Below, in pieces: positions 5,617 to 64,000 of a DNA stretch of 64,000 bases. The notes under the pieces were generated by a model. It did no database searches. It saw only the letters and a list, made by a program, of their open reading frames with translations, and had not been told where the DNA came from. The stretch lies in the IMG/VR virus record IMGVR_UViG_2909314774_000001, one strand, 5' to 3'. Each line of letters opens with the position of its first letter. The stretch's first letter is position 1. This stretch comes from a virus. Lineage: Duplodnaviria; Heunggongvirae; Uroviricota; Caudoviricetes. A program made the translations under genes and the position numbers.

Positions 5617-5934
5617 GTATTCCTCCTGATGGCCGTGATGTAGGAAGGCCATCAATCTCCTCTGTTCAAACTGAGTTTTCGACTCAAAAATTACTTTAAA
5701 AGGCTATAGCCCATTACGTGTGCATTATCAAATTGTGTACGGCATATCACCGTACTTGTAATATAGAGGTCATTGTTACTTTTTTCAACAGACAAATACA
5801 AGCTATGATTGCCAATTGTTAATCACAACCTACCATTTAACCTTTACACCGCAGCCGTAGGCATTTAGGCTATATCACATATAAGAAAACAAGTTGTTTC
5901 AGACGATAATTATATACGCAAAGGGAACTCTCCA

Positions 5935-6603
5935 ATGACCAAGATCTTTGTGGTTGGCGGCACAAAGGGCGGGCCTGGCAAATCCACCGTTGCCCAGCAA
6001 ATTGCCGTTTGCCTGAAAGTCAAAAAGAAGAAGAAGGTTTATATTACCGATATAGATATTCAGCGCACGACAACGAGCTGGTGTGAAGACCGTCGACAGA
6101 ACGAAGACCTTGAGCTGATTCCTTTTGCATACGTTCAGGATGACATCATTAAGCACCTAAAATCGCTTCAGGGTAGAGCTGAGTTTGTAGTGGTAGATGC
6201 CGGTGGCTTTGACTCCGAAATTCAGCGACAAGCGATGCTGATGGCTGACGTTATCATTATCCCGCTTCGTCCTAAGCGTCGTGATTTGAAATCTCTGCGT
6301 GACATTGATCCTATTATCGACAATGTTCGTAATGTAAACGATAAAGTGAAGGTCCGCGCGGTCATGAACCAGTGCCCGGCTTTGCCATCACAAGTGTCTC
6401 GCATTCTGGCGGCTAAAGAGATTGTCGAGACGTTTGGCATCGAGTCTGCGCCAGTCAATCTATATAACCGCAACGTCTATGATGATGCGGAAGAGTCTGG
6501 TCGTTCTATCTTTGAAATGACCGGTAGCGAGCGCGACAAAAAGGCGGAAGCCGAGTTTGAAGAATTTGTAGATTATCTGTTGAGTCTGGAGGAAGAAGAA
6601 TAA
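5935..6603 (+). CDS. parA: ParA-like partition ATPase
   Basis: Deviant Walker A GGTKGGPGKST near the N-terminus; followed by a small DNA-binding partner with a TAATG overlap. Confidence 0.85.
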   Translation: MTKIFVVGGTKGGPGKSTVAQQIAVCLKVKKKKKVYITDIDIQRTTTSWCEDRRQNEDLELIPFAYVQDDIIKHLKSLQGRAEFVVVDAGGFDSEIQRQAMLMADVIIIPLRPKRRDLKSLRDIDPIIDNVRNVNDKVKVRAVMNQCPALPSQVSRILAAKEIVETFGIESAPVNLYNRNVYDDAEESGRSIFEMTGSERDKKAEAEFEEFVDYLLSLEEEE

Positions 6604-6962
6604 TGTCCATGAAAATGGGTGACCTAGCAAAGCGCAAAGAGCCTGATGCACCGGCTAAGAACACAACTCCTTTGCGCCAACCAGTCAGACCACAGGGACG
6701 CCCGACTCGTGGCAAAGAGAAAATTAAAAGCCGCACAATGTCACTGGAGGACGAATACTTCGAACTGCTGGAGATGATGAAGTTCATCCCTCGCTTCGAG
6801 AAATTCACCCGCTCTGATGTGATTCGTGCTGCTATTTTCCATCTTGCGGAGAAGACACCGCAGGAAATCGAGGACATCGTGAAACTTAACGAGGCGATCA
6901 CAGCTGCCGATGTCACGATGCGTACCGATGAAATTAAACGCGAGTTGATGAAGAAAGGGTGA
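6603..6962 (+). CDS. Ribbon-helix-helix centromere-binding partition protein (ParG/ParB-like)
   Basis: Basic N-terminus and an RHH-like segment (SLEDEYFELLEMMKF...RSDVIRAAIFHL); translationally coupled to parA. Confidence 0.55.
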   Translation: MSMKMGDLAKRKEPDAPAKNTTPLRQPVRPQGRPTRGKEKIKSRTMSLEDEYFELLEMMKFIPRFEKFTRSDVIRAAIFHLAEKTPQEIEDIVKLNEAITAADVTMRTDEIKRELMKKG

Positions 6963-7013
6963 TTATATTGGGCGTTTGTTACGCCCAATATATGAGTTGA
7001 AGGATAGACACCA

Positions 7014-8720
7014 ATGGAATCGATAGAAGTATTTTTAAAAAATTTTTTGGACTCAGATCATCGGGTTGCTGTCATAAAAGGAAATTGGGGAGTAGGTAAA
7101 ACGCATTATTGGAATAGCTTTTATACTAAACATTCTAAAAAATTAGATTTTAATGCATATTCATATGTTTCTTTGTTTGGAATAAATTCTATTGGAGACA
7201 TTAAAAAAGCTCTTTATCATTGTGCCACACCAATTAATGAAAAGAAATATAAAGAACTGATTTTATCTGAAACGGATCGAACTATGATTCGTTATAGAAA
7301 TGGGTTTTGGGGATGGTTGAAATACAACTCCTTGTCAAAATTTTTAATACATTTTGGAAAGAACGATTTTTTTGGGTTCAAAACTGATAATCTGCTGTCA
7401 TCTCTTGAGTATAAATTTGTTAATAATTATTTGGTTTGCATTGATGATATTGAACGAAAAGGTAGTGCGCTAGAAATTAAAGAGATTATGGGGGTAATTG
7501 ATGAGTTGGCAAGAAGAAAAAATTGCAAGGTTGTTCTAATATTAAATGAAGATAACTTACATGAAGAAACTGCACAACAACAGTTTTTAGAGTATAGAGA
7601 AAAAATAATTGATGTGGAAATAAAATACGATCCCACGCCTGAGAAAAACTTAAGAAAAGTTTTTTATGAGACTGACCCTGATTTTCTTTTGTTAAAAAAC
7701 CTAGTAAATGATTTAAACATCAAAAACATTAGAATATTAAATAAAATAAAATCATCTCTAGTTATATTTAGAGATGTGCTAAAGTTAGCAGAGGATAAGG
7801 TTAGAGAAAGTTTTATTAATAGATTGGTCTTATTTTCAGTGGTTTACTATTTTGGTGTTCCTAGCGTTGATTATGCTTCATTTAAGGAGTCAATCAAAAA
7901 TATACATGCATTCGACTATATGTTAGATGATAAAGATGAAAAGGAAGAAGTTAACTCTGTATATTCATTTGTTAATAGCCTTGATGTTATTTATGAACGA
8001 GCAGAAAGTGCTTTCGATGATGATATAGATTTTTACCTTAAGAACGGTTATGTTTCTTCTGAAAGCAATATTCTAAATATAATAAAAGAAAAAAATGAAC
8101 AATATAGAGATAATAGGGTTTTATGTGAGGTTTATAAAATTTGGGATGTTTTTAGAAACTCTTTTAAAGATAATGAATCAGAGTTTATTTTTCAAATTGA
8201 GCGCGTAATTAACGATAGTCTGTTGCGTATACCAATTGGACAGTTCGTAGGTTTAATAAATGTCCTAATTAAATTGGATAGAGATTGTAATAATATTATA
8301 GAGGCATATGCAGATGCTTTTGTTAATAAAGAAAATGCGTATGCTACATTTAATTCTTTGCGAGTAGAGATCTTCGGAAATGAAGAATTAGGTTTCAGAA
8401 TTGAAAAAAAATTGAAAGATAGAAATCCAGATGACTATAACTTAGATAAAATTATAAAAAAAATAGCTGGTGGAAGATTTAACCATAGTGATGTGAATAT
8501 TCTTAACAGTTTTTCTAAAGATGATTACGTAAACTGGATATTATCCTGTGATCAGGATGCTTTGAATTTAGTAGAAGAGACTATGCTCAAGTTCAAGGGT
8601 ATGCAACACCCGACAGACGAACAGAAGAGCATCACTGATAAAGCAATAGAAGCTTTGGAGGAAGTTGCTTCAAAATCAACACTTAATAAGCTGCGTGTTA
8701 ATAAAATACTCAATCATTAA
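7014..8720 (+). CDS. KAP-family P-loop NTPase (PifA-like)
   Basis: Walker A GNWGVGKT at residues 22-29 and Walker B LVCIDDIERK; the gene is markedly more AT-rich than its neighbours. Confidence 0.65.
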   Translation: MESIEVFLKNFLDSDHRVAVIKGNWGVGKTHYWNSFYTKHSKKLDFNAYSYVSLFGINSIGDIKKALYHCATPINEKKYKELILSETDRTMIRYRNGFWGWLKYNSLSKFLIHFGKNDFFGFKTDNLLSSLEYKFVNNYLVCIDDIERKGSALEIKEIMGVIDELARRKNCKVVLILNEDNLHEETAQQQFLEYREKIIDVEIKYDPTPEKNLRKVFYETDPDFLLLKNLVNDLNIKNIRILNKIKSSLVIFRDVLKLAEDKVRESFINRLVLFSVVYYFGVPSVDYASFKESIKNIHAFDYMLDDKDEKEEVNSVYSFVNSLDVIYERAESAFDDDIDFYLKNGYVSSESNILNIIKEKNEQYRDNRVLCEVYKIWDVFRNSFKDNESEFIFQIERVINDSLLRIPIGQFVGLINVLIKLDRDCNNIIEAYADAFVNKENAYATFNSLRVEIFGNEELGFRIEKKLKDRNPDDYNLDKIIKKIAGGRFNHSDVNILNSFSKDDYVNWILSCDQDALNLVEETMLKFKGMQHPTDEQKSITDKAIEALEEVASKSTLNKLRVNKILNH

Positions 8721-8728
8721 TAGATTAT

Positions 8729-9642: not shown

Positions 9643-9685
9643 CTAATACTAGAAAACAATTTGTTTAAAAAACAAAGGAAAGCAC

Positions 9686-11026
9686 ATGACCGAACTTTGC
9701 CATACAGGACGCGGGCTGTCCGAAGAGTTTGATGAAGATTTCCAGAACAGACTGACGGCATATTTTTGTCGTGATCACGAGTTTCTTACTCGTGCGGGAG
9801 ATCTGGTTGTGCCTAGCCAGTTTGCCAATGCGGCCAATGCCATATTGGTTAATATGGTTTCGGGCTATTACCGTATGTACAAGAGCGCGCCCTCTTCATC
9901 TGCAATTCTGGATATGCTTAAGCGTGCGAAACGCGATAAGACTATCCGTGAGGAACTATTCGCCGATGTTGTTGCTGCGTTTAAGCGCATTCTTGCAGAA
10001 AAATTGTCCGATACCTCGTACATGGTTGACCAGGTATCAACCTTCGCAAAAAGTGTAGCGTTTGATGATGCTCTGATTAAGGCTGCTGAACTGAAAGAGA
10101 AAGGCGACTTTCAGGGGGCGATGGCAATCATGGCCAAGGTTCAGCAGATTGGATCGAACGAAGCGACCGGAATCTATGACTACTACACCTCCGCAAGTGA
10201 GCGATTGAAAGCGCGTGAATATGAGGCTTCAGAGGAGTATGTACCAAACAGTATTACAACTGGACTCCCTCTTCTCGATAGGTTGCTGTACCAAAAAGGC
10301 TGGGCAAAGCGCGAAATGGTGCTCTTCATGGGGTTCGCTAAATCCGGTAAATCGACCGCAATGGGTGAGTTTTCCATAAACGCAACGCTTGCTGGCTACA
10401 ATGTTCTGTATCTCTCGCTGGAGGTTCACACCACCATTTTATCCGACCGTTTTGATGCAAGATTGTCGGAGACAGAAATGTCCAAGCTGGTGGAACGGCG
10501 CGATGAGGTTCATCGTAAGTTGGCAGAGTTGGGAGCCACGAAGGGGATTGGTAGTTTGTGGGTGGTTGAGCGTCCGTCAGGAAGTATGTCACCGGCAGAT
10601 CTGGACCGTATGCTTAACAGCATGAAAGCCAACGGCATGGTACCTGACATGGTTGTTGTCGACTACGCAGATTTGATGCGTGCCAGTTATGACCTTCGTG
10701 ATGATCGCGCCAACATTCGTAGTATCTACACCGATTTACGTGCTCTTTATGACAAGCATAACGTTGCTGGGATCACGGCATCGCAGACAAACCGTGAAGG
10801 TGGAGCGTCAGAAGTTGCCACAATGATGCACGCTGCCGACAACATCGAAAAAGTACGTATTGCTGACCTGGTAATAACGATCAACAAAACCGAAGAAGAA
10901 GAAGCGAAAGGAGAGGCTCGTCTCTACTTTGCTGGTTCACGTAACCAGCAGGGAGGGATCAGCATTCGCGTTAAACAAAACCTCGAACAAATGCGCTTCA
11001 TTGAGCGAATCTTAGACGTTACCTAA
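9686..11026 (+). CDS. DnaB-family replicative DNA helicase
   Basis: Walker A GFAKSGKST and RecA-like C-terminal domain; conserved AAAGGAAAGCACATG start context. Confidence 0.85.
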   Translation: MTELCHTGRGLSEEFDEDFQNRLTAYFCRDHEFLTRAGDLVVPSQFANAANAILVNMVSGYYRMYKSAPSSSAILDMLKRAKRDKTIREELFADVVAAFKRILAEKLSDTSYMVDQVSTFAKSVAFDDALIKAAELKEKGDFQGAMAIMAKVQQIGSNEATGIYDYYTSASERLKAREYEASEEYVPNSITTGLPLLDRLLYQKGWAKREMVLFMGFAKSGKSTAMGEFSINATLAGYNVLYLSLEVHTTILSDRFDARLSETEMSKLVERRDEVHRKLAELGATKGIGSLWVVERPSGSMSPADLDRMLNSMKANGMVPDMVVVDYADLMRASYDLRDDRANIRSIYTDLRALYDKHNVAGITASQTNREGGASEVATMMHAADNIEKVRIADLVITINKTEEEEAKGEARLYFAGSRNQQGGISIRVKQNLEQMRFIERILDVT

Positions 11027-11107
11027 AAAATAAGCGTGGAGAACACCTCCACGCTTGATTCATTGGTGAAACAACTTTTCTTTTGCCAAACCACAAAAGA
11101 AAAACAC

Positions 11108-12286
11108 ATGAGCCTTTATGTTATATCAACATTTAGGTTGGTCACAATATTGCCTGTTAAAAGTGGAATTATCGTGAGCGAGCTGAAAGAGCTAATTACC
11201 GAATTAGATTTTGAACAATGGTTGGATACTGAAGGTATCGTTTATCGACGTGGAGGCGTGAGTGCTCGCGGTCGTGAAGTGAATATCAAGGAATGTCCGG
11301 TATGCGGCAGCTCCAACTGGAAGGTATATTTCAATCTGACCAGTGGCGTCGGCAAATGCTTTGCTGGTGATCATCCCGAAGAGATTCAGTTCAATAAGCT
11401 GGTCTTCCTCAAGCACTACAGCGGCAAATCACGACGACAGTTCGAGGAATATGTGCAGAACGCCCTTCTTTCCCAGGGGTGGGCACCAAAGAAAGAAGAG
11501 ATAGTGCTTGCAAGCACAGTCGAGTTAGAGGGACCACTTGCACTCCCTCGTCATTACGAACTTCCTATAGATGGCCGTCTTCCAGACTATCTGGTTGAAC
11601 GAAACATATCGCCTGAAATGGCAAAGTATTTTGACCTACGATACTGCGTCGAAGGCAAGCACGCCTATGTAGATCCGTATACAGATCAGGTTAAAGGACA
11701 GATATTCGATATGCGAATACTGATACCGGTTTACGATCTGGATGGGGTAATGAAGACATTTCAGGGACGAGACATTACCGGTACAGCAGAACGCCGCTAC
11801 CTCTTTCCTATGCAGCTTCCAGCTTCAGGTAAGTTTCTCTACAACGGCCATAATGCAGTCGGCAAACAGACTGTAGTTGTCTGTGAGGGGGCGTTCGATG
11901 TTATGGGGGTTAAACGAGCTATTTTTGACGAAGAAACATTACGTGATTACGTGGAACCAATAGGAACGTTCGGGATGCATCTATCTGGTAACACCACTCA
12001 GGATGCAGAAGATCAGTTAGGCGCGTTCCTGACGCTCAAGGCGCGTGGGTTACGTAATGTGATCATGATGTGGGATAGTGAAAAGCAAGCTATACGTAAT
12101 ACGATGGCCGCAGCCAGGCGACTGACCAGTATTGGTCTTAATGTCAAAGTGGCGTGTTTGGGCGAGGAAGGACTCGACCCGGGCGATGCAACGCCAGAGC
12201 AAATCATCAAAGCCTATTATCGGGCAAAACCGTATACCAAGCAGTTGGAGTTACAAAGCAAGGTTTTGGGCATTAAGGCTCTATGA
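11108..12286 (+). CDS. DNA primase (zinc-finger + TOPRIM, DnaG-like)
   Basis: CPVCGSSNWKV...GKCF zinc ribbon and TOPRIM motif VVVCEGAFDVMGV; start moved to ATG 11108, which carries the conserved AAAAACACATG context. Confidence 0.75.
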   Translation: MSLYVISTFRLVTILPVKSGIIVSELKELITELDFEQWLDTEGIVYRRGGVSARGREVNIKECPVCGSSNWKVYFNLTSGVGKCFAGDHPEEIQFNKLVFLKHYSGKSRRQFEEYVQNALLSQGWAPKKEEIVLASTVELEGPLALPRHYELPIDGRLPDYLVERNISPEMAKYFDLRYCVEGKHAYVDPYTDQVKGQIFDMRILIPVYDLDGVMKTFQGRDITGTAERRYLFPMQLPASGKFLYNGHNAVGKQTVVVCEGAFDVMGVKRAIFDEETLRDYVEPIGTFGMHLSGNTTQDAEDQLGAFLTLKARGLRNVIMMWDSEKQAIRNTMAAARRLTSIGLNVKVACLGEEGLDPGDATPEQIIKAYYRAKPYTKQLELQSKVLGIKAL

Positions 12287-16424: not shown

Positions 16425-16499
16425 GATGGTGTAGCTCAGCGGTAGAGCAGTTGGCTGTTAACCAACTGGTCGGTGGTTCGAATCCACCCACCATCGCCA
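16425..16499 (+). tRNA. tRNA-Asn (anticodon GTT)
   Basis: Hand-folded cloverleaf: acceptor GATGGTG/CACCATC, anticodon loop CTGTTAA, T-loop GGTTCGAATCC, 3' CCA encoded. Confidence 0.85.
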
Positions 16500-16504
16500 A
16501 TTTA

Positions 16505-16591
16505 GGGGAGTTAGTCCGTAGGGGCAGCGGGGTAGACTGTAAATCTACTGTCATTGCGACTCGGGTGGTTCGACTCCATCACTCCCCACCA
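16505..16591 (+). tRNA. tRNA-Tyr (anticodon GTA), class II with long variable arm; D-arm non-canonical
   Basis: Acceptor GGGGAGT/ACTCCCC, anticodon arm GTAGA-CTGTAAA-TCTAC, T-loop TTCGACT, CCA encoded; the D-arm would not fold canonically by hand. Confidence 0.6.
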
Positions 16592-16595
16592 AATT

Positions 16596-16671
16596 GCCGG
16601 TTTAGCTCAGTTGGTAGAGCGCCTGCCTTGTAAGCAGGATGTCAGCGGTTCGATCCCGTTAACCGGCACCA
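16596..16671 (+). tRNA. tRNA-Thr (anticodon TGT)
   Basis: Acceptor GCCGGTT/AACCGGC, D-arm GCTCAGTTGGTAGAGC, anticodon loop CTTGTAA, T-loop TTCGATC, CCA encoded. Confidence 0.85.
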
Positions 16672-16762
16672 ACACAACAGGTAAGAGCATTGGGCGAATC
16701 GGCGATACTGACCACAAGCCCGTAAATCGATAGAGTCAGACCAGTGCTCTTACCGTTGTGAG
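16672..16762. repeat. Long imperfect hairpin C (candidate structured RNA)
   Basis: Arms CAACAGGTAAGAGCATTGG / CCAGTGCTCTTACCGTTG, ~47 nt loop; begins right after tRNA-Thr. Confidence 0.5.
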
Positions 16763-16807
16763 GAAGTGCAGCTCTTTGAAGCAACCAGAAGATAAGCATC
16801 TGGCTTC

Positions 16808-16892
16808 ACAACACAACGATAAGATCATTACGGTTAATCGTCGTTCATGTGCACAATGACTGGTCGAAAGGTAGTGATCTTACCGTTGTGAT
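16808..16892. repeat. Long imperfect hairpin D (candidate structured RNA)
   Basis: Arms CAACGATAAGATCA / TGATCTTACCGTTG, ~48 nt loop. Confidence 0.5.
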
Positions 16893-16990
16893 GAATGCAC
16901 AGGCTGATGTGCCGCAACTACAGTAGTGCGCGCTTTGCGGGGCTTGCTACAACCCTGTGTCGGAGTTCAGCACCGACCATCACAATAGCT

Positions 16991-17074
16991 GGAGAGTAGG
17001 GAGCATGGTGCTCAAGCGGTCTTGAAATCCGTCCCATTGTGCAAACGATGATGGTTCGATTCCATTACTCTCCG
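16991..17074 (+). tRNA. tRNA-Ser (anticodon TGA), class II; D-arm and anticodon stem imperfect
   Basis: Acceptor GGAGAGT/ACTCTCC with discriminator G and CCA; anticodon loop CTTGAAA; T-loop TTCGATT; long variable arm. Confidence 0.55.
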
Positions 17075-17075
17075 C

Positions 17076-17157
17076 CAGACACAGCGTTGAGCGGTTTGGC
17101 CTTTTAATCAACCAGATTAAGACTCCGCTAACATAAACCAGACCGCTCAACGCTGTG
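17076..17157. repeat. Long imperfect hairpin E (candidate structured RNA)
   Basis: Arms ACAGCGTTGAGCGGTTTGG / CCAGACCGCTCAACGCTGT, ~38 nt loop; directly after tRNA-Ser. Confidence 0.5.
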
Positions 17158-17269: not shown

Positions 17270-18532
17270 TTACTTTGCATAGTCGCCCAATTTTAATATT
17301 TCGCGCTTATATTCATTAACCATGCTACTGGATTCAGTATAAATTCGATTTAAAAGATTATCGTTATCTTTATTTTCATTTATCTTAATTAGTGCTAATT
17401 TATATTCATAGTCATCAAATGCCACAATTAAATGGTGGCCTGGGATTATATCTTCGTCACTCTTAAAGTATATATCTTCAAGTATGTAATCTAGTTGATT
17501 AGATTTTCTTTTCTCGATGTAATCTTCAGCCATAGCTATTACATCATTCCTGTCATTTAACCTGTTTTTTTCGGAAGGCACATCTTCGTAATGTTGCACG
17601 ATTGAACAACCAATAAGGCGTGGGATGTAAACGTCAAAATGAGTAACTCTATCATTCGCGGTTTTAAGTAGTTCCTCAAAGTAGTTTCTTACATGTAAAG
17701 GCAACTTCTCAAAGTAATCATTAATTATAGGAGAACAAGGAGTTTTATAATTCATAAGAACCGACGGTACGAGCTTTGGGTGTCGAAACATCCAGTCCCT
17801 TTTAACGTCCGATGGAACATAATAACTTTTAATGATATTATCAAAATAATTTATCATTCGAGATTTGAATATTTTGTTGAATCTAAGGTTTATGAATGTA
17901 TCCAGATAAGGCATATTTGAATAAGCATCATCAAAAAATATTTCATCATTGAAAAAATCATATTTATTCAATAAACAACACAGTTTTTCCGAATTAATAT
18001 GTTCACAATAATCGATTTTTAATCCAAAGATAGCAATGATCAACTTCATCTGAGGTGGGATTTTAAAAATTAATTGTGACACATACGCTCTTTTTTCCTT
18101 GAGACATTCCCCATCAATATAAAATGAACCATCCACATACTCAAATATATTAATAATATGCTTCACATACTGTATTACCTCATGCTGTCTTACCAATGGG
18201 TAATATAGTCTATGTAACTCATCGCTGTTTAAATTAATTTTGTGTTTATCGATAATTTGTTTTGCAAGAAGACATAACTCATCATGTTGATTTAATAAGG
18301 AATCAAACCATTGTTTAAATGCACTCTTTCGCATTTCGAACAATGATTCAGTTGTTAATTGAAGGGCTGAAAAAGCTGCTTTTGCACTTTTTCTCGCTTC
18401 GTAGGCATTCCATGCTGTTGCTATAAAAGCAAATGCTGTAGCCAATGTTCCAACAGTTTGACCATTTAAAACAACCCAATCCCAAAAAATGACGGTGAGC
18501 AGTAGTATAATAATGAAAATTAAAAAAGGCAT
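17270..18532 (-). CDS. Membrane-anchored protein of unknown function (420 aa), AT-rich island
   Basis: N-terminal hydrophobic helices (FLIFIIILLLTVIFWDWVVL; TLATAFAFIATAW) then a large Asn/Tyr/Lys/Phe-rich soluble domain; base composition far more AT-rich than flanking genes. Confidence 0.6.
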   Translation of the reverse strand: MPFLIFIIILLLTVIFWDWVVLNGQTVGTLATAFAFIATAWNAYEARKSAKAAFSALQLTTESLFEMRKSAFKQWFDSLLNQHDELCLLAKQIIDKHKINLNSDELHRLYYPLVRQHEVIQYVKHIINIFEYVDGSFYIDGECLKEKRAYVSQLIFKIPPQMKLIIAIFGLKIDYCEHINSEKLCCLLNKYDFFNDEIFFDDAYSNMPYLDTFINLRFNKIFKSRMINYFDNIIKSYYVPSDVKRDWMFRHPKLVPSVLMNYKTPCSPIINDYFEKLPLHVRNYFEELLKTANDRVTHFDVYIPRLIGCSIVQHYEDVPSEKNRLNDRNDVIAMAEDYIEKRKSNQLDYILEDIYFKSDEDIIPGHHLIVAFDDYEYKLALIKINENKDNDNLLNRIYTESSSMVNEYKREILKLGDYAK

Positions 18533-19163: not shown

Positions 19164-20267
19164 ATGAAAAATAGCTTTGACAGAGCACGCGCTGCGGAGA
19201 ACACCTCAAAAGAGGCGATAGAGTATCTCGAAAGAGCATCTCAAATGCAGGCCGTTATGATCTCCCAGGTCAGCAATGACATGAGATTCTCGGACGCATT
19301 CATGTTATTCACTCGCTTATCTCTGCTGATAACCAGACGTCGGCCAGAGATCGCTGTTCATTGTATTTTGATACATGTTTTGCCGCACATTGCCGATGTA
19401 AAAGTAAGTGACATTAATAGGTTCATGGTGAACCAACTGGTCAACCCACTAATACTGGATGGCAAAATTGTTATGGGCCGCCGCGTTTTCTCTCTGATGA
19501 AGCAGTTCCTTAGCTGGTGCGCCTTCCAGGGGATGATAGACGTGTCACCGTTAAACGATATGTCACTTAACAAAGTTGCCGGTGGCGCAAAGCCCACACC
19601 TCGCGAGCGGAAGCTGACCGACGCAGAGGTATGGGTGTTCTGGAATATATGGGACTACTTCAATGTGTGTGCTGGTACAAAATGGGCGGCCAGGCTATGT
19701 CTTGTATCCGCAAGACGACCTGACGAAGTACTGCGGGCTAAAAAAAGTGAGTTCAATCTTAAGCGTGGGGTTTGGAATCAAGGCAAGAGGAACAAATCTG
19801 CCCGTGAGCATTCTCTGCCTTTAAGCTCATTAATGCGCACTTGTATTGAAGAGTTGTTCGAATATGGTAAAGACAGCCAGTGGCTCGTGCCTTCGAATAA
19901 AAAAATCGGGAAAGACCTTCCTATGTCTAAAGTGGCAATAGCCCAGGCATTACGTCGTATTCTGGAACGACCAGAACTGATGGAGCTTGAGCCATTTACA
20001 CCCCGAGATTTGCGCCGTACTGCGCGTAGTTACTTCCCAGCATTAGGCATAAGCCAGGAGGTATCACGTAAAATCATGAACCACAGTCTTGAGGGGATAG
20101 ATCGGGTCTACGACCGGCACGATTATATGGACGAGATGCGAGACGCCTTAGAAAGTTTCTCGACGTACATCGCATCAATCGTAGAGCAACCGGATTTAGA
20201 CGAAATTGACCACAAATTTAAGGGAGATCGTCTATCAACAGAGCTTATTCGTGTAAATTTTTCATAG
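19164..20267 (+). CDS. Tyrosine recombinase (phage-integrase family) lacking an N-terminal arm-binding domain
   Basis: Core-binding and catalytic domains with R...H..R...Y-type segments (LVSARRPDEV..., ...RDLRRTARSYF..., HSLEGIDRVYDRHDY); nothing upstream resembles an arm-binding domain. Confidence 0.7.
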   Translation: MKNSFDRARAAENTSKEAIEYLERASQMQAVMISQVSNDMRFSDAFMLFTRLSLLITRRRPEIAVHCILIHVLPHIADVKVSDINRFMVNQLVNPLILDGKIVMGRRVFSLMKQFLSWCAFQGMIDVSPLNDMSLNKVAGGAKPTPRERKLTDAEVWVFWNIWDYFNVCAGTKWAARLCLVSARRPDEVLRAKKSEFNLKRGVWNQGKRNKSAREHSLPLSSLMRTCIEELFEYGKDSQWLVPSNKKIGKDLPMSKVAIAQALRRILERPELMELEPFTPRDLRRTARSYFPALGISQEVSRKIMNHSLEGIDRVYDRHDYMDEMRDALESFSTYIASIVEQPDLDEIDHKFKGDRLSTELIRVNFS

Positions 20268-20648
20268 AGACTTTATGGCCTCAACAACCTTTTGTGATGC
20301 GCCTTTCTCTTTACCGAATCGCTCGTTATATGCAGCAAGAACCTGTTTTTCGTCCTCGTTAAGAGGAGCAGTGCCTTCTTTGTATAAAAATGCTGCGAGT
20401 TCGGGTTGGCGTTCTTCCAGCACCATCATCATAAGACGACTTGGCTCAATACCCAGTGCCAGCGCCAGCGGACGAACCTTATCGATAGGCAAAGGAATTT
20501 TGCCGCTTTTAATTAAAGAAAGGTTGTTGGCGTTTTTATACCCAATTGTTTTGGCTATCTGGGCCTGGCTCATAGGTGAGGATTCAATCAACCCTGCGAT
20601 AAAAGCAGCGTAGCGACTTTCTATAAATTCAATCTTGTTATCAGACAT
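20262..20648 (-). CDS. XRE-family helix-turn-helix transcriptional regulator
   Basis: HTH segment SQAQIAKTIGYKNANNLSLIKSGK; divergent from the downstream + strand genes; its promoter region carries a GGTAAGTGCTTACC palindrome. Confidence 0.7.
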   Translation of the reverse strand: MSDNKIEFIESRYAAFIAGLIESSPMSQAQIAKTIGYKNANNLSLIKSGKIPLPIDKVRPLALALGIEPSRLMMMVLEERQPELAAFLYKEGTAPLNEDEKQVLAAYNERFGKEKGASQKVVEAIKSL

Positions 20649-20899
20649 GGTTACAACCTTTGCGCGTTCAATTCTCTCTGGTAAGTGCTTACCGATATTA
20701 CATCAAAGGTTAGGGTTGTAAAGCTATTATCATTTTTTTCGATAGGCACTTAAAAGACCGGTTAAAGGCCATTGCACGGAGAAAAATTAGCCCAAAACAG
20801 GTAAGAAAATCAACTTGCATATGATATGAATGTATTCAGTATTGATACAAATTTTAGTAGTATTCCTTACCATAATATAAGTTAGAATGGATTGATTGA

Positions 20900-21112: not shown

Positions 21113-21210
21113 CCCCTCTTCTCCCTGCGCGAATGGCTTAGTTCCCTGTTCGCGCAGTGCTACATTAAACACACTAGTAAATAATTTGTTTTCATAACAA
21201 AGGATTAGCC

Positions 21211-23319: not shown

Positions 23320-23414
23320 TTAAAACAGCCTTAATGATAAGTAACTACTTACCATAGTTAATGGTATATTTATATAAGAACTTGAACGCTCATTAGAGAA
23401 CAAAGGAAAAGCGC

Positions 23415-24650
23415 ATGACTACTACTGCACTGCAAAATGATAAAAATCCTTCTGATTACCTTGTTTGCAAGTGGTGCGGCAAATCATTTCACTATTTTAA
23501 GTCCCATGTAGCCAATGGTAATTGCGAGGGCATTCCTGAGTCAGTAAAAGATGCCGATCCTGACACCGTACTGAAAATGTACACAACGCAGTTTCCAGAT
23601 GAACCAACGCTATCGAAAAAGGCACTTGATGCAATTCAAGCTAAACGTGCCGAGCAAAAAAGCGAAATGGCGAAATCTTCTGGCTTGACCAGTAGCCCAG
23701 GCTACACAGGCACAGTTGAGTACAAGACAGATCTGGTCGCAGCTCACGAACTGCTAAACGTAACGGTGGAAGAACTCGGAACAAAACGTGGGACGCCGCT
23801 CATGGTTAGCGTCAACGTCAATACGCCGTATCCAGAGTTCGTTCCAGAAGTGAAGAAGGGCTACGTATATGGCGACTTCGAACTGATCAAAGATATTTTC
23901 ATGATGCTTGAACTTGGCATACCTGGCTATTTGTGGGGTCATGCAGGAACAGGCAAATCGTCATTGCCTACACAGCTATGTGCTTTGCTCAATCGTCCGT
24001 TGATCCGTGCCCAACATACAGCATCAATGGAAGAGGCACATGTTACGGGGCAAATTCTGGCGCGTGATGGCTCTACGTATTTCGAGCCTGGCTTGCTTGC
24101 GCTCGCAATGAAGCATGGCTGGGTTTACCTCGCGGATGAATACGACTTTGCGTTTCCACAAATTCTTGGCGTGTATCAGCCAGTGCTGGAAGGTGAGGCG
24201 TTGGTCATCAAAGAGGCAACTCCAGAATGGCGTCGCATTACTCCGCATGAACGGTTTGCTTTCATTGGCACTGGCAACACAAACGGTTCTGGTGATGAAA
24301 CCGGCTTGTACCAGGGTACAAACATCCAGAACGCCGCGAACTTTTCACGTTTTGGCATCGTTTCGAATGTGAAATACATGAGCAAAGAGGCAGAGATCAA
24401 CATGTTGATAAATGCCGGCATCGTGGATGAATACGCTGAAAAGATGGTTAAGTTTGCCGGTATCGTTCGCGATGGATATGAAGAACACCTTATCAGCCAG
24501 CCAATTGGGCCTCGTGAGCTTTTGTTGTCGGCCAAGATTGGAATGATGCGAGGCGACTTTGTGACAGGTATTGAGCGTTCTTTCATTAACAAACTCCCTT
24601 CAGCTTCTGCGCAAGCGGCTCGTGAAGTTGTTCAAAAAATATTTGGTTAA
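23415..24650 (+). CDS. AAA+ ATPase (CobS/MoxR-like)
   Basis: Walker A GHAGTGKSS and Walker B VYLADEYD; adjacent to the VWA protein, the usual pairing. Confidence 0.7.
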   Translation: MTTTALQNDKNPSDYLVCKWCGKSFHYFKSHVANGNCEGIPESVKDADPDTVLKMYTTQFPDEPTLSKKALDAIQAKRAEQKSEMAKSSGLTSSPGYTGTVEYKTDLVAAHELLNVTVEELGTKRGTPLMVSVNVNTPYPEFVPEVKKGYVYGDFELIKDIFMMLELGIPGYLWGHAGTGKSSLPTQLCALLNRPLIRAQHTASMEEAHVTGQILARDGSTYFEPGLLALAMKHGWVYLADEYDFAFPQILGVYQPVLEGEALVIKEATPEWRRITPHERFAFIGTGNTNGSGDETGLYQGTNIQNAANFSRFGIVSNVKYMSKEAEINMLINAGIVDEYAEKMVKFAGIVRDGYEEHLISQPIGPRELLLSAKIGMMRGDFVTGIERSFINKLPSASAQAAREVVQKIFG

Positions 24651-47083: not shown

Positions 47084-47188
47084 CATATGGTGGGGTATAA
47101 CCCCACCTTCTCTTTGATTTGTAAGCCTTGTTTAAACAAATAAGATAACAACTTGTTTAAACACATCAAAAAGCAAAAGGAAAAACAC

Positions 47189-48331
47189 ATGTCATATTCA
47201 ACGTTCCGTTTGGGTGCTAATGATGCAACCAAAGAGCCTATGTTCCTCGGACAATCTGTCAACGTGGCACGTTACGATCAGCAAAAATACCGTGATTTTG
47301 AAAAGTTGATTGAACGTCAATTGTCTTTCTTCTGGCGGCCGGAAGAAGTTGATATTTCGAGCGATCGTATCGACTTCAACACGAAGCTGCGGGACCACGA
47401 ACGTCACATTTTTCTGAGCAATCTCCGTTATCAAACGTTACTCGATTCAGTTCAGGGACGTAGCCCAAATGCAACGCTGCTGCCGCTTATCTCTATTCCT
47501 GAACTGGAAACGTGGGTTGAAACATGGTCTTTCTCTGAGACTATCCATAGCCGCAGCTACACCCACATTATTCGTGGCATGGTGGACGATCCGAGCATTG
47601 TTTTTGACGGTATTGTTACGGATGAAGAAATCATCAACCGAGCGATCAGTATCTCTGCTGAATATGACAGGCTTTATGGGATGACCTGCGAGCGCCAGTC
47701 GTTAGGTGAGAAGGAGTTTGAACGTCTGTACGTAAATGAATATGGCTGGGAGCCATACCCTTTGCACCGTCAGCTTTTCCGCACGTTGGTGTCCATTAAT
47801 GCGCTTGAGGCGATCCGTTTCTATGTAAGTTTTGCATGTACGTTTGCCTTTGGCGAACGGAAGTTGCTTGAGGGTAACACCAAAATTATGCGCTTTATTG
47901 CCCGTGATGAAGCTCTGCATTGCGAAGGAACTGAACGCATGATCCGCTTCATGCGTACCGGTCGCGAAGGTTTATTGTGGAAAGAGATTGCTGCTGATGA
48001 AGAAAACGTCATTTACGACACCATGAAATCAGTAGCCGAACAAGAAATGAACTGGGCAGACTATCTCTTCAAAGACGGTTCGATGATTGGTTTAAACGCG
48101 GACATTCTCAAAACCTATGTAAAATACCGCACCAATCTGGCTATGAATCGTCTTGGCCTGAAGGCTTTATTTCCAGAAGTTACCACTGATCCGCTGGTCT
48201 GGATGAACAAGTGGTTGTTAACCGACACACTGCAAATTGCACCACAAGAGGCAGAGCAAAGTACATATCTGGTAGGTCAGATCGATTCTACCGTGGATAA
48301 GGCTTCTCTAAGCCAGTTTGCTGACCTGTAA
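47189..48331 (+). CDS. nrdB: Ribonucleotide reductase class Ia small subunit
   Basis: Di-iron ligand motifs (E..H in FGERKLLEG...DEALHCEG); start moved to ATG 47189 with the conserved AAAAGGAAAAACACATG context. Confidence 0.9.
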
Positions 48332-53185: not shown

Positions 53186-53907
53186 GCCTTTCAATCATTT
53201 CCTGCCTGTATTTAATACTTTTCCGCCTGATAGGTTTAGTCAAAATGTAGCCATCGAAACGCAAATGCAACTAAACAGAAGGAGACTTACATGAGTTCGG
53301 TTGAAAATGTAATGACAAATGATGATCTGGATGAGCTGACAGCCATGTTGCAATCACTTGATGAACCAGTAAAAAAAGCCGCACAGGTTGAAAATACTGA
53401 TGATATTGACGATCTGCTGCTCGGCCTCGATGCTGGCGTAGCCATGAGTTCTGATGATGTTGCCGAAGAACTGTTCAATGAAGAAAAAGCAGGTGATTTC
53501 AGCTCTGCTTTAAATGAGTTGGAGTTAGCGCATGAGCCTATAAACGTAATTAACGCTGAAAGTGTTGAATCTGCCGAAAACGAGCCAGAACAATTGGGAT
53601 TGATTGAGGTTGAAGAGTGTGTTGAGGTTAATGATGAATTAAAAGTTCAACAGTCAAATGATAGCAATACAAATAAAAAAGCTCGTGCTGCAAGAGGTCC
53701 TCGTTTTACTTTAAGTGATAAAGATGATTCGTTTTTCAATAAAGCGGGCTTAGAAAAAGATATTTTCTTAGACGCTTACGATAACGCGCCTGTCAAAGCA
53801 AAGGATAAGATATTAAACCTTCTTAATTGGTTTAGCGGAGGTCCAGATATTAGTGTTTACACGGTAATTTCCATGAGTGAAGTGGTCAACAAAAACTGGC
53901 CACCGAG

Positions 53908-55055
<1,148 letters not shown>

Positions 55056-55536
55056 TATGGCACCTGTGTTGTTCTGAGGTGAGCATATCACCTCTGTTCA
55101 GGTGGCCAAATTCAGTAAACCACTTCAGAGACACCTTCTCACAGAAAAGAAGGCTACAAGTAATAGTATTAAGATTGCTTTAATGAGCAATCCAGAAAAA
55201 CCGTATCCGCTTAACACTGCGTCAACTCAGGCTGGGCAAATGATGGCTGTATTTCCAGCGACAGGAATTGCCGTTAGAGGCGGTGGAAATCTAACATTGA
55301 ACGAAGAATCACCGATCGTTAAGAAGTTTGTCGCGGAGTACACTATTGGATGACGTTCCCCTACTGAAAATAAAGCCCATAGAGAGCTTTATAGTGCTGG
55401 GTAAGCCAATCACATACCCAGCACCACAAAAACGCGCCAGAGAGCTTCTCGTTTGCATTTCTGGCGCGTTTTATTTGATTGCCAGACATAAAATCAAATG
55501 CAAAAATAGGTATTTACTTACCTATCGAGAAAGAAG

Positions 55537-56291: not shown

Positions 56292-56546
56292 ATGAATCAC
56301 TTTAAGGAAACTAACATGTCATACCCGACTAATGTCGTTGCGCTCGTAGAGAGCGATTTTCTGGCCCAGGCCCGTGAAATGATGAAAGATCGCGAGCAGG
56401 CTTTCAACTTGTACGAATGGGCAATTAAGTGCTTGCATCTTGGGGAGCATCGCGAACTTGTTGAACAGCTTTTAGGTGAGTTGATTAACGAGGTGTTTGC
56501 CTTGAATGTTCAACTACATGGTCGAGAAAATAATCAATCGAAATGA
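56292..56546 (+). CDS. Hypothetical protein
   Basis: 84-codon ORF. Confidence 0.4.
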   Translation: MNHFKETNMSYPTNVVALVESDFLAQAREMMKDREQAFNLYEWAIKCLHLGEHRELVEQLLGELINEVFALNVQLHGRENNQSK

Positions 56547-58571: not shown

Positions 58572-58664
58572 CGGTTGTTAGTGCATATGCATTGACCGTC
58601 TTTTCGTAAGCAATTCATGTAACTAGAAAACAACTTGTTTTAACAAATAACAAAAGGAAAGCAC

Positions 58665-59090
58665 ATGTTAGGTTTATTCAAAAAGAAAACTCGTAAAGCT
58701 GTTATCGAGGTCAAAAAAATGGAGAACCGAGATGCGGTTGAAGCCACCGTGTGGGGCGCGTACATGATCTCCTATGCCGATGGCACATGCGACGCAAAGG
58801 AAATTTCCATTCTTGAGAAAACAATTGCAGCTCTGCCTGCGTTTTCTCCGTTTGCTGGTGAGATTGCCCAAATGAGCGCCAATATCCGTGCTCAATACGA
58901 AGCCTCACCGCGCCGCGCTAATGCCCAGGCTTTACGTGAGCTGGCTGATGTGGCCGGGACTAATGATGCAGTAGATGTACTGTGTCTGTGCCTTGATATT
59001 GCCGACCAAGACGGTATTGGCGAACAAGAAGAGCTGGCCCTGAAAAAGATCGCACAGGCGCTTCAGTTGTCACTGGATGCTTATCTCTAA
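58665..59090 (+). CDS. TerB-like domain protein
   Basis: ...YMISYADGTCDAKEISILEK...DVLCLCLDIADQDGIGEQEELALKKIAQAL... resembles TerB-fold proteins. Confidence 0.5.
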   Translation: MLGLFKKKTRKAVIEVKKMENRDAVEATVWGAYMISYADGTCDAKEISILEKTIAALPAFSPFAGEIAQMSANIRAQYEASPRRANAQALRELADVAGTNDAVDVLCLCLDIADQDGIGEQEELALKKIAQALQLSLDAYL

Positions 59091-59248: not shown

Positions 59249-59387
59249 TGACAAGGGCCAAATGGCCCTTGTGTTTCGTTGACCGAAATAGAGAGTTTGC
59301 ACCTTTACGTTTAGCTTGCTCCCCTTTTATGCCACATCACAATAAAGCCAATAAGAAAACAACTTGTTTAAGCATTAGGAAAAACAC

Positions 59388-59957
59388 ATGTGCAAGAAAT
59401 GCAAAGCGATAGCTGATGAACAAAACGCCTTATTCGAAGAAATGGATGCTAATGAACTGGTCAAAATGTTAGCCATTCTTCGAGGAATAGAAGACGTTTC
59501 CATATTTGAGAGAGTGGTTACAGCACTTAATTTTGAGTCCACCTTTGAAGAGCCAACTCAGGTTGTAGCTTTAGCACATCATTTCGGTGTTCATTATCTT
59601 GCTGAAAAAGAGCGCGCTGATAAGTTGCAGGCGACTTTGGATATGGTGAGCGAGACTCAACGAACTGATGACACTAACAAGAGTGAGGCGATTATTGCCA
59701 GCAAAGATCGTGAAATTGCTGGGCTTAAATCCTCTCTAACGATGTTGATGTCTGCGTTCAATCTTATGTCTTCTCAGGCGGGTTATAAAATGCCATCACT
59801 AAACAGCGATGATCCGATGGCCGTTCGTCAGCTTTTGGGAGCAATGGCCGACCAACTCGACGACACAAAGAGTCGGCTTGAAGACATGATGCGTGAGTTA
59901 AGCCATCGACATAACCTCGCAACACAGCCACACAAAGCCTTTCAAAGCTCTAATTGA
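59388..59957 (+). CDS. Hypothetical protein (coiled-coil)
   Basis: 189-codon ORF with the conserved upstream palindrome and AAAAACACATG context. Confidence 0.5.
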   Translation: MCKKCKAIADEQNALFEEMDANELVKMLAILRGIEDVSIFERVVTALNFESTFEEPTQVVALAHHFGVHYLAEKERADKLQATLDMVSETQRTDDTNKSEAIIASKDREIAGLKSSLTMLMSAFNLMSSQAGYKMPSLNSDDPMAVRQLLGAMADQLDDTKSRLEDMMRELSHRHNLATQPHKAFQSSN

Positions 59958-62700: not shown

Positions 62701-62761
62701 TAGGTAAATACTTACCTAATTTGTGTAAGAATGTAGTTACTAAACGATAAGAGAAAAACAC

Positions 62762-63466
62762 ATGAACAACCTCCAGTTAGAGCATTTTAACGTCACAGGC
62801 CATTCTGATTTTCCTTTCAAGTTTACATTGAAAGGTTATGCAGAGGATGCGGTAGGCCAGATCATTATTGATAAAGGCATCGTTAAGTTTGAGGGGGATT
62901 TTGATGAATCCGCGAAAACATTCATAGACTTCGTTGCCAAACGTTGGAGCGAGCAATGGAAAAACCTGGAAAAGCGCGCCAATGAGTTTGATCGGTTCAT
63001 GGATGCAATGGATACAGCAAAAGAGGCTCTTGATGCCGGGACTCCGTTAGATCTGGAGTCACTTTTCAACGGCGAAGTGGCCTCTGCGATGTTCGCCACC
63101 ATGTTCGCGGGTGAGTTCGTCCGCAGCGGTGCCAAAAACTACCTTGAGCTGGATTACAACGTCCCTGCAATTGGCGATTTCGTCGTTACCATCCAACGCA
63201 AAGAAGGTAAGACGCCAGGTGAACGCGTCGCAGAACTTGAGGCTGTTGTGGATCAGCGTAACGGAGAGTGTGACCGTTTGATCAACGAGCTTCATGCACT
63301 TCGGGAAGAAAGAATATGCGCGGGTAGCAATACACGTAATGCAGCGGATATCTACTTCCAGTTAGTTGAGGAATGCCAGATTCCACCAGGCGGCTCTCTT
63401 GTCGATTACGTCAGACATTTAATGACGGAAGTTAACTCCAGCCATAAAGATGGTGAGGTGCGCTGA
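62762..63466 (+). CDS. Hypothetical protein
   Basis: 234-codon ORF with the conserved AAAAACACATG start context. Confidence 0.5.
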   Translation: MNNLQLEHFNVTGHSDFPFKFTLKGYAEDAVGQIIIDKGIVKFEGDFDESAKTFIDFVAKRWSEQWKNLEKRANEFDRFMDAMDTAKEALDAGTPLDLESLFNGEVASAMFATMFAGEFVRSGAKNYLELDYNVPAIGDFVVTIQRKEGKTPGERVAELEAVVDQRNGECDRLINELHALREERICAGSNTRNAADIYFQLVEECQIPPGGSLVDYVRHLMTEVNSSHKDGEVR

Positions 63467-63846
63467 TGTTTGGCATTGACGCACAGCGTATAGCCGCTTT
63501 TGCAAAAAGCCCTCTTGATAATCCCTTGTCTCGTAGTGAGCAAATGGAGCTGGCAAGGCTTTTTCTTCACATTCAAAAACAGGCAGACGTTTTCAATAAC
63601 ATGCCTGATCAACCTATTCTGGATGGTCACATCCAGATGGTCATTAACAGTCATGAGAAAGGCTGGGCTGCAATCGTCCCCTGCACAATTACATACAAGT
63701 TGGCGAAAGAGGTTCAAGAGTTTCGAAAAGTCAGCGTCGAATCAGAGTCTACCAAAGCCGCAATAAACACTCTTATTCGCATGGGGTTCACATGGGACGG
63801 TGGAGCTTACTGGCAAGCACCTCACCCCATTTTATCCGGCAATTAG
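63466..63846 (+). CDS. Hypothetical protein
   Basis: 126-codon ORF, start overlaps the previous stop. Confidence 0.45.
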   Translation: MFGIDAQRIAAFAKSPLDNPLSRSEQMELARLFLHIQKQADVFNNMPDQPILDGHIQMVINSHEKGWAAIVPCTITYKLAKEVQEFRKVSVESESTKAAINTLIRMGFTWDGGAYWQAPHPILSGN

Positions 63847-63984
63847 ACGCTACAAATCCTTCGGCATGAATAAATAAAGGCCATAAGTTGTGGCCTTAAA
63901 TAAATTGTTTTCTACCTTTTCTTATTTGTGAAAATAAACCAGCACTTGGTAGTGCTTATGTAACAGCAAAGAAGAGAAAAACAC

Positions 63985-64000
63985 ATGAGTAACAAAATCG
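63985..64000 (+). CDS. Hypothetical protein, 3'-truncated by window edge
   Basis: ATG 63985 carries the conserved GAGAAAAACACATG context; only 5 codons fall inside the window. Confidence 0.3.

Follow-up and report, generated by a model that had tools for sequence, protein, structure and literature searches.

Here we report a family of short palindromes in an SSU5-like phage-plasmid, of which a stretch of 64,000 nucleotides (IMG/VR record IMGVR_UViG_2909314774_000001, Caudoviricetes; hereafter the window) was analysed. The palindrome, 13-19 bp long and of the form AGAAAAC-AAnTT-GTTTTCT, stands upstream of parA, a DnaB-like helicase gene, nrdB and five further genes, and we consider it fairly probable that it is the operator of a dimeric repressor encoded by the phage-plasmid itself, its copies marking a dispersed regulon that is silent in the plasmid state. 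Our literature searches returned no paper on the palindrome motif, nor on the silencing or switching of lytic genes in SSU5-like phage-plasmids, and the motif is apparently undescribed, though its kind is familiar. SSU5-like phage-plasmids are frequent among clinical Enterobacteriaceae, and a conserved operator at ~20 promoters predicts transcription units, supplies a bait for the regulator and offers a handle on whether partition and lytic control are coupled. On a practical level, the promoter/operator module and the uniform translation-initiation region described below could become compact, tightly repressible expression parts.

The window shares 96-98% identity with Escherichia phage Cyrano (pLF82 of E. 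coli LF82), CMS-2020a and PhiR41_1, ~80% with Salmonella phage SSU5 and ~78% with Klebsiella phage-plasmids. It runs from tail fibre and lysis genes through parA into genes of replication, recombination and nucleotide metabolism, while the terminase/structural operon and the small-gene cluster of the phage-plasmid lie outside it. In PLSDB the helicase was found in 929 plasmids and the partner protein of ParA in 796.

Enrichment and position of the palindrome

The full symmetric form of the palindrome is AGAAAACAAnTTGTTTTCT, with an invariant core of 13 bp, AAACAAnTTGTTT. Allowing up to two mismatches, the pattern GAAAACAAnTTGTTTAA matches the window eight times against 0.12 expected, and none of 100 shuffles reached eight; of the core there are five perfect copies (0.03 in Markov-1 simulations) and three with one mismatch (0.37), and core copies with two or three mismatches are at chance level. 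The eight copies start at 5885, 9652, 21177, 35413, 47144, 58626, 59355 and 63896. All are intergenic, in a window that is ~81% coding by a crude gene call (0.19^8, or ~2e-6), and all lie upstream of + strand genes, with 23-42 nt between palindrome centre and ATG at seven copies and 81 nt at 63896. An operator regulon is recognised by one short symmetric sequence that recurs at many promoters in great excess over chance and stays within noncoding DNA, and the palindrome shows this pattern.

An earlier reading of this DNA, made from its letters and open reading frames alone (the sequence-only reading), had placed the palindrome ahead of six genes. Every copy it named was recovered, 1-3 nt from where it had been put, and the enrichment is real; the class of six proved too small, since the copies at 21177 and 63896 also belong to it and relatives hold 17-20 copies per genome. 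AT-rich composition, which had been named as a possible explanation of the motif, accounts on our enrichment statistics for neither the palindrome nor the initiation context.

Ahead of parA (ATG 5935) the copy at 5885-5901 (+ strand; GAAAACAAGTTGTTTCA, core perfect) lies 11 nt 3′ of a promoter-like pair, TTTACA(5843)-17-TAGGCT(5866), that Cyrano, SSU5 and Klebsiella pJN2-26 share without change, and is followed by GATAAT at 5905-5910. The helicase copy is perfect (9652-9668, +, GAAAACAATTTGTTTAA; ATG 9686), as are the copies at 35413-35429 (+), just 3′ of a terminator-like hairpin and upstream of a DUF7238 gene (ATG 35444), and at 59355-59371 (+), upstream of a gene for 189 aa (ATG 59388); the copy of the TerB/TciA-like gene (58626-58642, +; ATG 58665) has a perfect core. 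One core mismatch (AAATAATTTGTTT) is found at 21177-21193, upstream of a 702-aa CobT-like gene (ATG 21211) with a TGnTACATT -10-like element at 21161-21166, and the orthologues of this copy are perfect in SSU5 (42729) and Klebsiella (91040). The nrdB copy (47144-47160, +, GATAACAACTTGTTTAA; ATG 47189) also has one core mismatch, and here GCCTT(47125)-N11-TAAGAT(47141) puts the palindrome over the predicted transcription start. Within the spacer of this putative promoter lies an everted variant, TTGTTTAAACAA (47130-47141), conserved in Cyrano and SSU5 and decayed in Klebsiella; of the two nrdB copies previously claimed, that at 47147 corresponds to the copy at 47144 and that at 47128 is this everted arrangement. 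The last copy (63896-63912) is in reverse orientation, on the - strand, ahead of a gene with its ATG at 63985. A possible degenerate copy with two mismatches, AAACAACTTTTCT (11069-11081, +), lies 26 nt before the primase ATG and is by itself at chance level.

Promoter geometry and the nature of the element

All sites of three complete genomes were aligned on the palindrome centre and the starts of -10-like hexamers were counted. Relative to the centre they form two peaks, at -25 with 14 sites and at +26 with 8, so that in the relatives the palindrome is centred at ~+14 (type B) or ~-38 (type A) relative to a putative promoter. The TGn of an extended -10 is carried by 18 of the 22 typed promoters, typically as TGnGATAAT, a sigma-70-type element; extended -10 promoters work without a -35 element and without an activator. 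The type B consensus is cTTtt.cgCCTttt-N-TGcGATAAT-aAcaCCAac-AAGAAAACAAnTTGTTTAa, with the ribosome-binding site and ATG immediately behind it, and the type A consensus consists of a terminator-like hairpin and CCttaAACAAnTTGTTTTCT-gCCTTTT-N-TGtGAaAAT. Type A promoters often have a second copy, sometimes degenerate, at +14, and paired copies 51 bp apart are found at Cyrano 93114/93165 and SSU5 88319/88370. The longer palindrome arm, AGAAAAC, always faces the promoter.

In the window, the 59355 copy belongs to a canonical type B module, CCCTT(59322)-N11-CACAAT(59338)-N9-AAGAAAACAACTTGTTTAA, and the 63896 copy has the type A layout, with a hairpin followed by TTAAATAAATTGTTTTC-ta-CCTTT-N10-TGtGAAAAT(63930-63935). 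The spacing from the palindrome centre to the nearest -10-like hexamer varies between window copies (-27, -25, -24, -19, -15, -11 and +26), which is compatible with a steric repressor and not with a core promoter element or an activator. A core sigma-70 element, whether -35 or -10, is ruled out by this variability together with the two orientations and the occurrence on both sides of the -10, and a canonical -35/-10 reading of the palindrome itself lacks a consistent hexamer partner. The NrdR box, a 16-bp sequence (acaCwAtATaTwGtgt) that occurs in tandem pairs upstream of nrd genes, was likewise rejected, as the palindrome differs from it in sequence and most copies are at genes other than nrd.

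As RNA the palindrome would fold weakly, its folding energies of -0.7 to -2.3 kcal/mol giving z-scores between -0.5 and +0.6 against shuffled sequence, and type A copies lie upstream of their putative promoter and would be outside the transcript. Since, in addition, no Rfam family matches at the palindrome sites, an RNA hairpin or intrinsic terminator was rejected, and the palindrome therefore acts as DNA and not as RNA. The suggestion of the sequence-only reading that the palindrome makes a poor hairpin and would better suit a DNA-binding dimer agrees with the weak folding, the use of both orientations and the placement on both sides of the -10, from which we infer binding itself.

A further conserved element is a GCCTT (or CCCTT, CCGTT) box at ~-28 to -24, whose distance to the -10 hexamer on its 3′ side is exactly 11 nt. 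It is found in the window at 47125-47129, 59322-59326, 34246 and 30726 and in Cyrano (L002) at 21131, 23767, 25207, 25906 and 26390. The box is too near the -10 for a normal -35 and in some copies forms the 3′ end of a terminator stem.

Conservation in related phage-plasmids

With up to one mismatch, the core occurs 18 times in Cyrano, 20 times in SSU5 and 17 times in Klebsiella pJN2-26; chance would give 0.1-0.3 copies in a piece of 20-50 kb. Orthologous copies precede parA, the helicase gene, the cobT-like gene, nrdB, the TerB-like gene and others; in the relatives the small terminase gene is preceded by two copies, and the small-gene cluster contains seven to nine, each ahead of an individual gene. 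Four-genome alignments of the regions upstream of nrdB and of the helicase gene show the palindrome as a conserved island between diverged flanks. The centre base is free, reading T/T/A/C across the four genomes at the helicase copy and showing no bias over 55 sites (G15, A15, T14, C11).

Lineages whose ParA partner is 48-64% identical keep the palindrome at parA, in the symmetric form AAGAAAACAnCTTGTTTTC, and at the helicase gene. In our phage collection the promoter/operator module is confined to SSU5-like elements, while an exact-pattern scan of viral contigs was dominated by single chance matches. Moellerella wisconsensis pW18-2-b has ParA and a 45%-identical partner; the sole trace of the motif in 24 kb of it is a pair of inverted half-sites upstream of parA, AAGAAAAC and, 31 nt on, GTTTTCTT, which weakly ties the half-site to the par locus. 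Covariation of operator and binder was uninformative, as the close relatives are too similar, the 48-64% lineages keep the same site and the Acinetobacter relative is too distant (its helicase is 37% identical). The Acinetobacter baumannii element p5759_1 has a gene for a sigma-70 family factor between those for a MoxR-like ATPase and dnaE (L213 17690-18355), and by tblastn the enterobacterial members have no homologue of this factor.

Expression in the Cyrano lysogen

A study of LF82 gives an RNA-seq value for each Cyrano gene in lysogens, with a median background of 9.8 (PMC9928086, S1 table). Most genes directly behind palindromes are close to that level: terS 7.1, cobT-like 7.8, CYRAN_58 5.7, nrdB 12.9, TciA-like 7.0, CYRAN_87 7.1, CYRAN_93 6.3, CYRAN_101 7.5, CYRAN_105 12.8, CYRAN_106 12.2, CYRAN_108 5.7 and CYRAN_110 6.7 (PMC9928086, S1 table). 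The only unit that is clearly on is the parA operon (parA, CYRAN_29 and CYRAN_30 at 50, 89 and 55), and the helicase gene (21) and CYRAN_111 (25) are mildly elevated (PMC9928086, S1 table). Palindrome-linked genes are thus at lysogen background, with the parA operon as main exception, an indirect sign of the off state expected under a repressor, yet one that fits an activator model equally well. For the co-regulated gene class that had been proposed this means that its units are indeed silent together in the Cyrano lysogen, from which we infer co-regulation, but that it is not a simple functional class, because nrdA carries a second, different palindrome (TAAGTACTTA, see below) and nrdB the first. 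Pfam and PHROG scans of palindrome-linked and lysogen-expressed genes returned mostly "unknown function".

By far the highest lysogen expression in Cyrano, ~7000 against a background of 10, belongs to CYRAN_43 (L001 18269-18823, - strand), which has no Pfam match. In its place the window has a different open reading frame (ORF) of 420 aa (17270-18532, - strand), also without a Pfam match.

A repressor-operator model

We read the palindrome as an operator, and its binder as a repressor, because putative strong extended -10 promoters are silent in the lysogen and a symmetric site lies over their predicted start region. On this model a dimeric phage-plasmid protein would bind the palindrome and block host sigma-70 RNA polymerase at ~20 otherwise constitutive promoters, with the operator either covering the start site and early transcribed region (~+14) or abutting the -35 region (~-38). 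At promoters with two copies the sites would be five helical turns apart, and cooperative binding would be possible. The regulon would comprise the parA operon, the helicase gene, the CobT-like gene, nrdB, the TerB-like gene, the terminase/structural operon and the small-gene cluster, and would be held silent in the lysogenic (plasmid) state. In this reading the hexamers would be the promoters in use, and a candidate protein, discussed below, would bind the site and repress.

Candidate binding proteins

Our tentative choice of binder is a 119-aa protein whose gene (6603-6962, + strand) comes immediately after that of the small ParA (222 aa); it is the presumed centromere-binding partner of ParA, and we give the same limited weight to another phage-plasmid protein, so far unrecognised. 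In favour of the 119-aa protein, one palindrome copy occupies exactly the spot that small-ParA systems use for the operator of the partner. The protein is, moreover, common in PLSDB and conserved at 90-99% identity between Cyrano, SSU5 and Klebsiella, and its invariant segments are MGDLAK at the N-terminus, a basic tail and KSRTMS-EDE...FTRSDVIRAAI. Two AlphaFold runs (pLDDT 64-65) predict helices at 48-61 and 70-82 after the basic tail and no strand. A ribbon-helix-helix (RHH) fold, seen as a resemblance by eye only, was not confirmed by AlphaFold, Foldseek, PDB/Pfam searches or hhalign, the last of these not significant against hand-entered RHH sequences. The Cyrano orthologue is expressed at 9x lysogen background (PMC9928086, S1 table).

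A 128-aa helix-turn-helix (HTH) putative repressor (HTH_19, phrog_8; 20262-20648, - strand) is an unlikely binder, and a host factor equally so. The HTH protein is identical to CYRAN_45, whose lysogen level is 96 (PMC9928086, S1 table). It was downgraded on two grounds: its own upstream region has another palindrome, GGTAAGTGCTTACC (20680-20693), conserved in Klebsiella between diverging flanks, and SSU5 lacks both the HTH gene and the neighbouring integrase yet has its 20 copies of the first palindrome. A ParB-family binder, as in a KorB/OB-type regulon, was also rejected, both ParB_N proteins of Cyrano being at lysogen background (5-9.5; PMC9928086, S1 table).

A bolder version of the model is doubtful: the 119-aa protein would be both partition protein and global silencer of the lytic programme, the palindrome would have spread from the parA promoter to ~20 promoters, and a second palindrome family (GTAAGTACTTAC) would form a separate layer tied to the HTH repressor. 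If true, one protein would read out both plasmid maintenance and the decision between lysis and lysogeny, at promoters that include those of replication, nucleotide-metabolism, early small and terminase genes. To our knowledge such KorB/omega-like logic, with a partition protein as global silencer, has not been described for any phage.

Alternative explanations

The lysogen data are shared by a model of opposite sign, in which the palindrome is a positive promoter element for a phage activator, sigma factor or RNA polymerase that switches genes on in the lytic phase, as do the T4 MotA box, the P1 Lpa box and T7-type promoters. Silence of the downstream genes in the lysogen is what activator-dependent genes would show, the type A position at -38 is like that of a class II activator site, no good -35 is present in the promoters, which do have the conserved GCCTT box at ~-28 to -24, and the distant Acinetobacter relative encodes its own sigma-70 family factor. 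We nevertheless consider this model unlikely, given that 14 of the 22 typed sites are at ~+14, 3′ of the -10, the commonest position and not one from which activators work, that both orientations and variable spacing are used, and that most of the typed promoters have a TGn extended -10, normally activator-independent. A tblastn search with the Acinetobacter sigma factor and five non-exhaustive Pfam scans, covering 46 proteins, detected no homologue of a sigma factor or RNA polymerase in the window, Cyrano, SSU5 or Klebsiella. Similarity by descent is a somewhat less probable alternative, in which cassettes of promoter plus hairpin were copied around the genome as recombination joints between modules, in the manner of the PeSL cassettes of T4-type phages. 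Whole modules of 60-70 nt are alike between sites, beyond the palindrome; they flank small variable genes, for example at Cyrano 93-98 kb compared with SSU5 87-95 kb, and gene content behind orthologous copies differs, with DUF7238 in the window and DUF2591 in SSU5. Against mere copying, conservation at orthologous sites is markedly higher in the palindrome than in the remainder of the module, the parA, helicase, cobT and nrdB copies occur without the rest of the cassette, and invariant arms around a free centre base are what selection for symmetric binding leaves behind.

Least probable, in our view, is that the ParA partner binds the copies as centromere-like partition sites and that they matter little or not at all for transcription. 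This would account for the copy that overlaps the parA promoter region, where type Ib systems place their centromere/operator (5885-5901, between the TTTACA-17-TAGGCT pair and the parA ATG), for the parA operon being the main palindrome-linked unit expressed in the lysogen, and for the restriction of the Moellerella trace to half-sites upstream of parA. Type Ib centromeres, however, are normally repeat arrays at the par locus, whereas upstream of parA there is a single copy and no other repeat family; the other copies keep a fixed spacing to -10 elements that would not be needed for partition alone, and a DNA-binding fold of the partner is at best putative.

The repressor-operator model remains our preferred reading, and several observations weigh against it. 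Promoter assignments are consensus matches for every member, and the nearest -10-like hexamer is poor at the window copies at 9652, 35413 and 58626. Lysogen silence fits promoters that need a lytic-phase activator equally well, and the likeness of the copies could partly reflect duplicated promoter cassettes rather than selection on every base. Foldseek and profile searches of PDB and Pfam detected no DNA-binding fold in the ParA partner. As SSU5 keeps the sites without the HTH repressor, they are not tied to that lysogeny module, and in the 24 kb examined the Moellerella relative has no palindrome at the helicase, primase and cobT genes, so that the regulon is not universal.

A uniform translation-initiation context

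The window has a second recurrent feature at its gene starts. The context AAGGAAAAACACATG is matched 10 times with up to two mismatches, against 0.24 expected, and its 3′ part, AAACACATG, has 11 exact copies, all on the + strand and none on the - strand, against 0.64 expected; all four genomes have 9-11 copies of this 3′ part, on the coding strand only. Allowing up to three mismatches, 14 gene starts match AAGGAAAAACACATG, three exactly, three with one mismatch, four with two and four with three, and a longer consensus reads aaCCACAaAAGGAAAAACACATG. The sequence-only reading had described an almost invariant start at more than a dozen genes, a number that holds only at the three-mismatch threshold, with near-invariance limited to the 3′ part; the genes that it named do match, the SbcD-like gene and nrdB exactly, the primase gene with one mismatch and the DnaE gene with two. 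Its union of palindrome and context in a single architecture does not hold: about five of the eight palindromes are followed by the context and about five of the 14 such starts have a palindrome, and because only ~5 starts have both we treat them as two features.

All 14 contexts are on the + strand. Exact matches to AAGGAAAAACACATG precede a 91-aa gene (35913-35927), the SbcD-like gene (40139-40153) and nrdB (47177-47191). The helicase gene (9674-9688, conserved in relatives) and the TerB-like gene (58653-58667) have AAAGGAAAGCACATG; the Ead/Ea22-like gene (62750-62764) and the gene running off the window end (63973-63987) have AGAGAAAAACACATG. The remaining starts are those of the primase (AAAGAAAAACACATG, 11096-11110), a CobS/MoxR-like gene (AAGGAAAAGCGCATG, 23403-23417), the DnaE-type polymerase (AGGTAAAAACACATG, 24819-24833), a gp32-like single-stranded DNA-binding protein (AAGGAGAAACACATG, 30838-30852), a 66-aa gene (ATAGGAAAACACATG, 34306-34320), a 76-aa gene that is the weakest match (AAGGAAACTAACATG, 56304-56318) and the 189-aa gene (TAGGAAAAACACATG, 59376-59390).

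These 14 starts have the Shine-Dalgarno arrangement, with AAGGA 7 nt before the ATG and an A-rich spacer ending in CAC, and the context is conserved at orthologous genes in the nrdB and helicase alignments. All 14 starts with an (A)AGGAAAAACACATG-like sequence follow noncoding gaps, while starts that overlap the previous gene use other sequences. We read the context as the preferred translation-initiation region of the family, used where the upstream sequence is free of coding constraint. A less likely reading is that AAGGAAAAACACAUG is the target of a translational regulator or endoribonuclease acting on early mRNAs, like RegA or RegB of T4. The spacer AAAACAC is conserved beyond the needs of Shine-Dalgarno pairing, AAACACATG recurs 9-11 times per genome on the coding strand of four genomes, the genes concerned are T4-like replication and recombination genes, and Cyrano encodes a full-length homologue (Pfam Flag1_repress, E=1e-80) of FljA, which represses fliC translation by binding its 5′ leader. 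On the other side, no RegA or RegB homologue was found among the proteins scanned, the context occurs exactly where coding constraint is absent, as would an optimised initiation region, and the link to FljA is a guess.

The FljA homologue is CYRAN_114 (L002 28781-29302, - strand), which lies outside the window and is conserved in SSU5 and Klebsiella. FljA is a repressor of phase-1 flagellin; CYRAN_114 is expressed in lysogens under several conditions, and either host flagellin or phage mRNAs may be its target. Between the promoter-side arm of the palindrome, AAGAAAACAAC, and the context, AAGGAAAAACAC, there is a resemblance (at 59355-59390 and other starts) that may be an A-rich coincidence, and some relatives have a lone half-site that runs into the ribosome-binding site (SSU5 85602, Klebsiella 21773).

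A second palindrome family and other features

A second intergenic palindrome, unrelated to the first and with the core TAAGTACTTA (longer form GATAgGTAAGTaCTTACcTATC), marks other gene starts, including that of nrdA. With up to one mismatch it has eight matches in the window against 1.4 expected, the 10-nt cores lying at 3290, 15658, 20682, 23342, 30751, 34271, 44708 and 62705, and there are 13 copies in Cyrano, 18 in SSU5 and 21 in Klebsiella, several of them between structural genes. The copy at 20682 is the one upstream of the HTH repressor gene, conserved at that place in Klebsiella. The copies at 30751 and 34271 are just 3′ of a GATAAT or GAAAAT -10, the slot taken by the first palindrome elsewhere, and those at 44708 and at SSU5 5476, 15594 and 21942 are followed by terminator-like hairpins. 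The element could be the operator of the HTH repressor or an RNA-level, nut-like site.

The window has several other features of note. Directly 3′ of the parA operon, in a stretch of 38% GC, is a gene for a KAP-family P-loop NTPase of 568 aa (7014-8720, + strand); Cyrano has an unrelated 267-aa gene in this place, and the slot is likely to hold accessory or defence cargo. Four tRNA genes (Asn, Tyr, Thr, Ser) lie at 16425-17077, where Cyrano has three and SSU5 one. An IS3-family insertion at ~53878-55127 is 99.8% identical to an IS911-type element of Salmonella phage SEN22, with transposase ORFs on the - strand at 53908-54726 and 54753-55091; a 206-aa ORF that adjoins it (53291-53911) looks truncated, and no such element is annotated at the matching position in Cyrano. 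A full-length match to the Rfam cspA thermoregulator (28628-29046, - strand; 183 bits, E=1.5e-48) leads into a 71-aa cold-shock-type gene at 28653-28868.

Comparison with known systems

None of the systems compared here is a sequence relative of the palindrome family, and by analogy its logic appears nearest to the dispersed C1 operators of P1 and the KorA/KorB regulon of RK2. In P1 the C1 repressor controls many lytic and accessory units through more than a dozen dispersed ~17-bp operators that overlap promoters, and both P1 and the window family are plasmid prophages, the latter with its proposed operator copies likewise dispersed at promoters. The P1 operator, however, lacks symmetry and is of unrelated sequence, and it has a known binder, whereas here the binder is only a candidate; P1 late operons, moreover, are controlled indirectly through Lpa, whereas here two copies stand directly ahead of the terminase operon.

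The PeSL cassettes of T4-type phages are likewise repeated modules of strong promoter and hairpin that flank small variable genes, but they have no symmetric operator, whereas here the palindrome is the best-conserved part and also occurs without the cassette. The gene 10 leader of T7 (AAGGAGATATACATATG) shares with our initiation context a Shine-Dalgarno core followed by an A/T-rich, G-poor spacer of 7-8 nt; here, in contrast, 11 starts have almost the same spacer, AAAACAC.

The symmetry of the site is shared with the OB operator of RK2, a 13-bp palindrome of 6+1+6 (TTTAGCSGCTAAA) that is found at many promoters, one class of sites lying just upstream of the -35. The palindrome described here has the same 6+1+6 build, recurs at many promoters and includes an upstream-of--35 class. 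In RK2 the partition protein KorB doubles as a global repressor; the sequence of its site is different, and KorB is a ParB-family HTH protein, whereas here a small type Ib ParA is paired with a 119-aa partner. If that partner is the binder, the nearest parallel would be the omega protein of pSM19035, a small partner of a ParA ATPase that is both centromere-binding protein and repressor of several promoters, although omega binds arrays of 7-bp heptads at three promoters of a Gram-positive plasmid and the phage-plasmid protein would act through a single palindrome at ~20 promoters.

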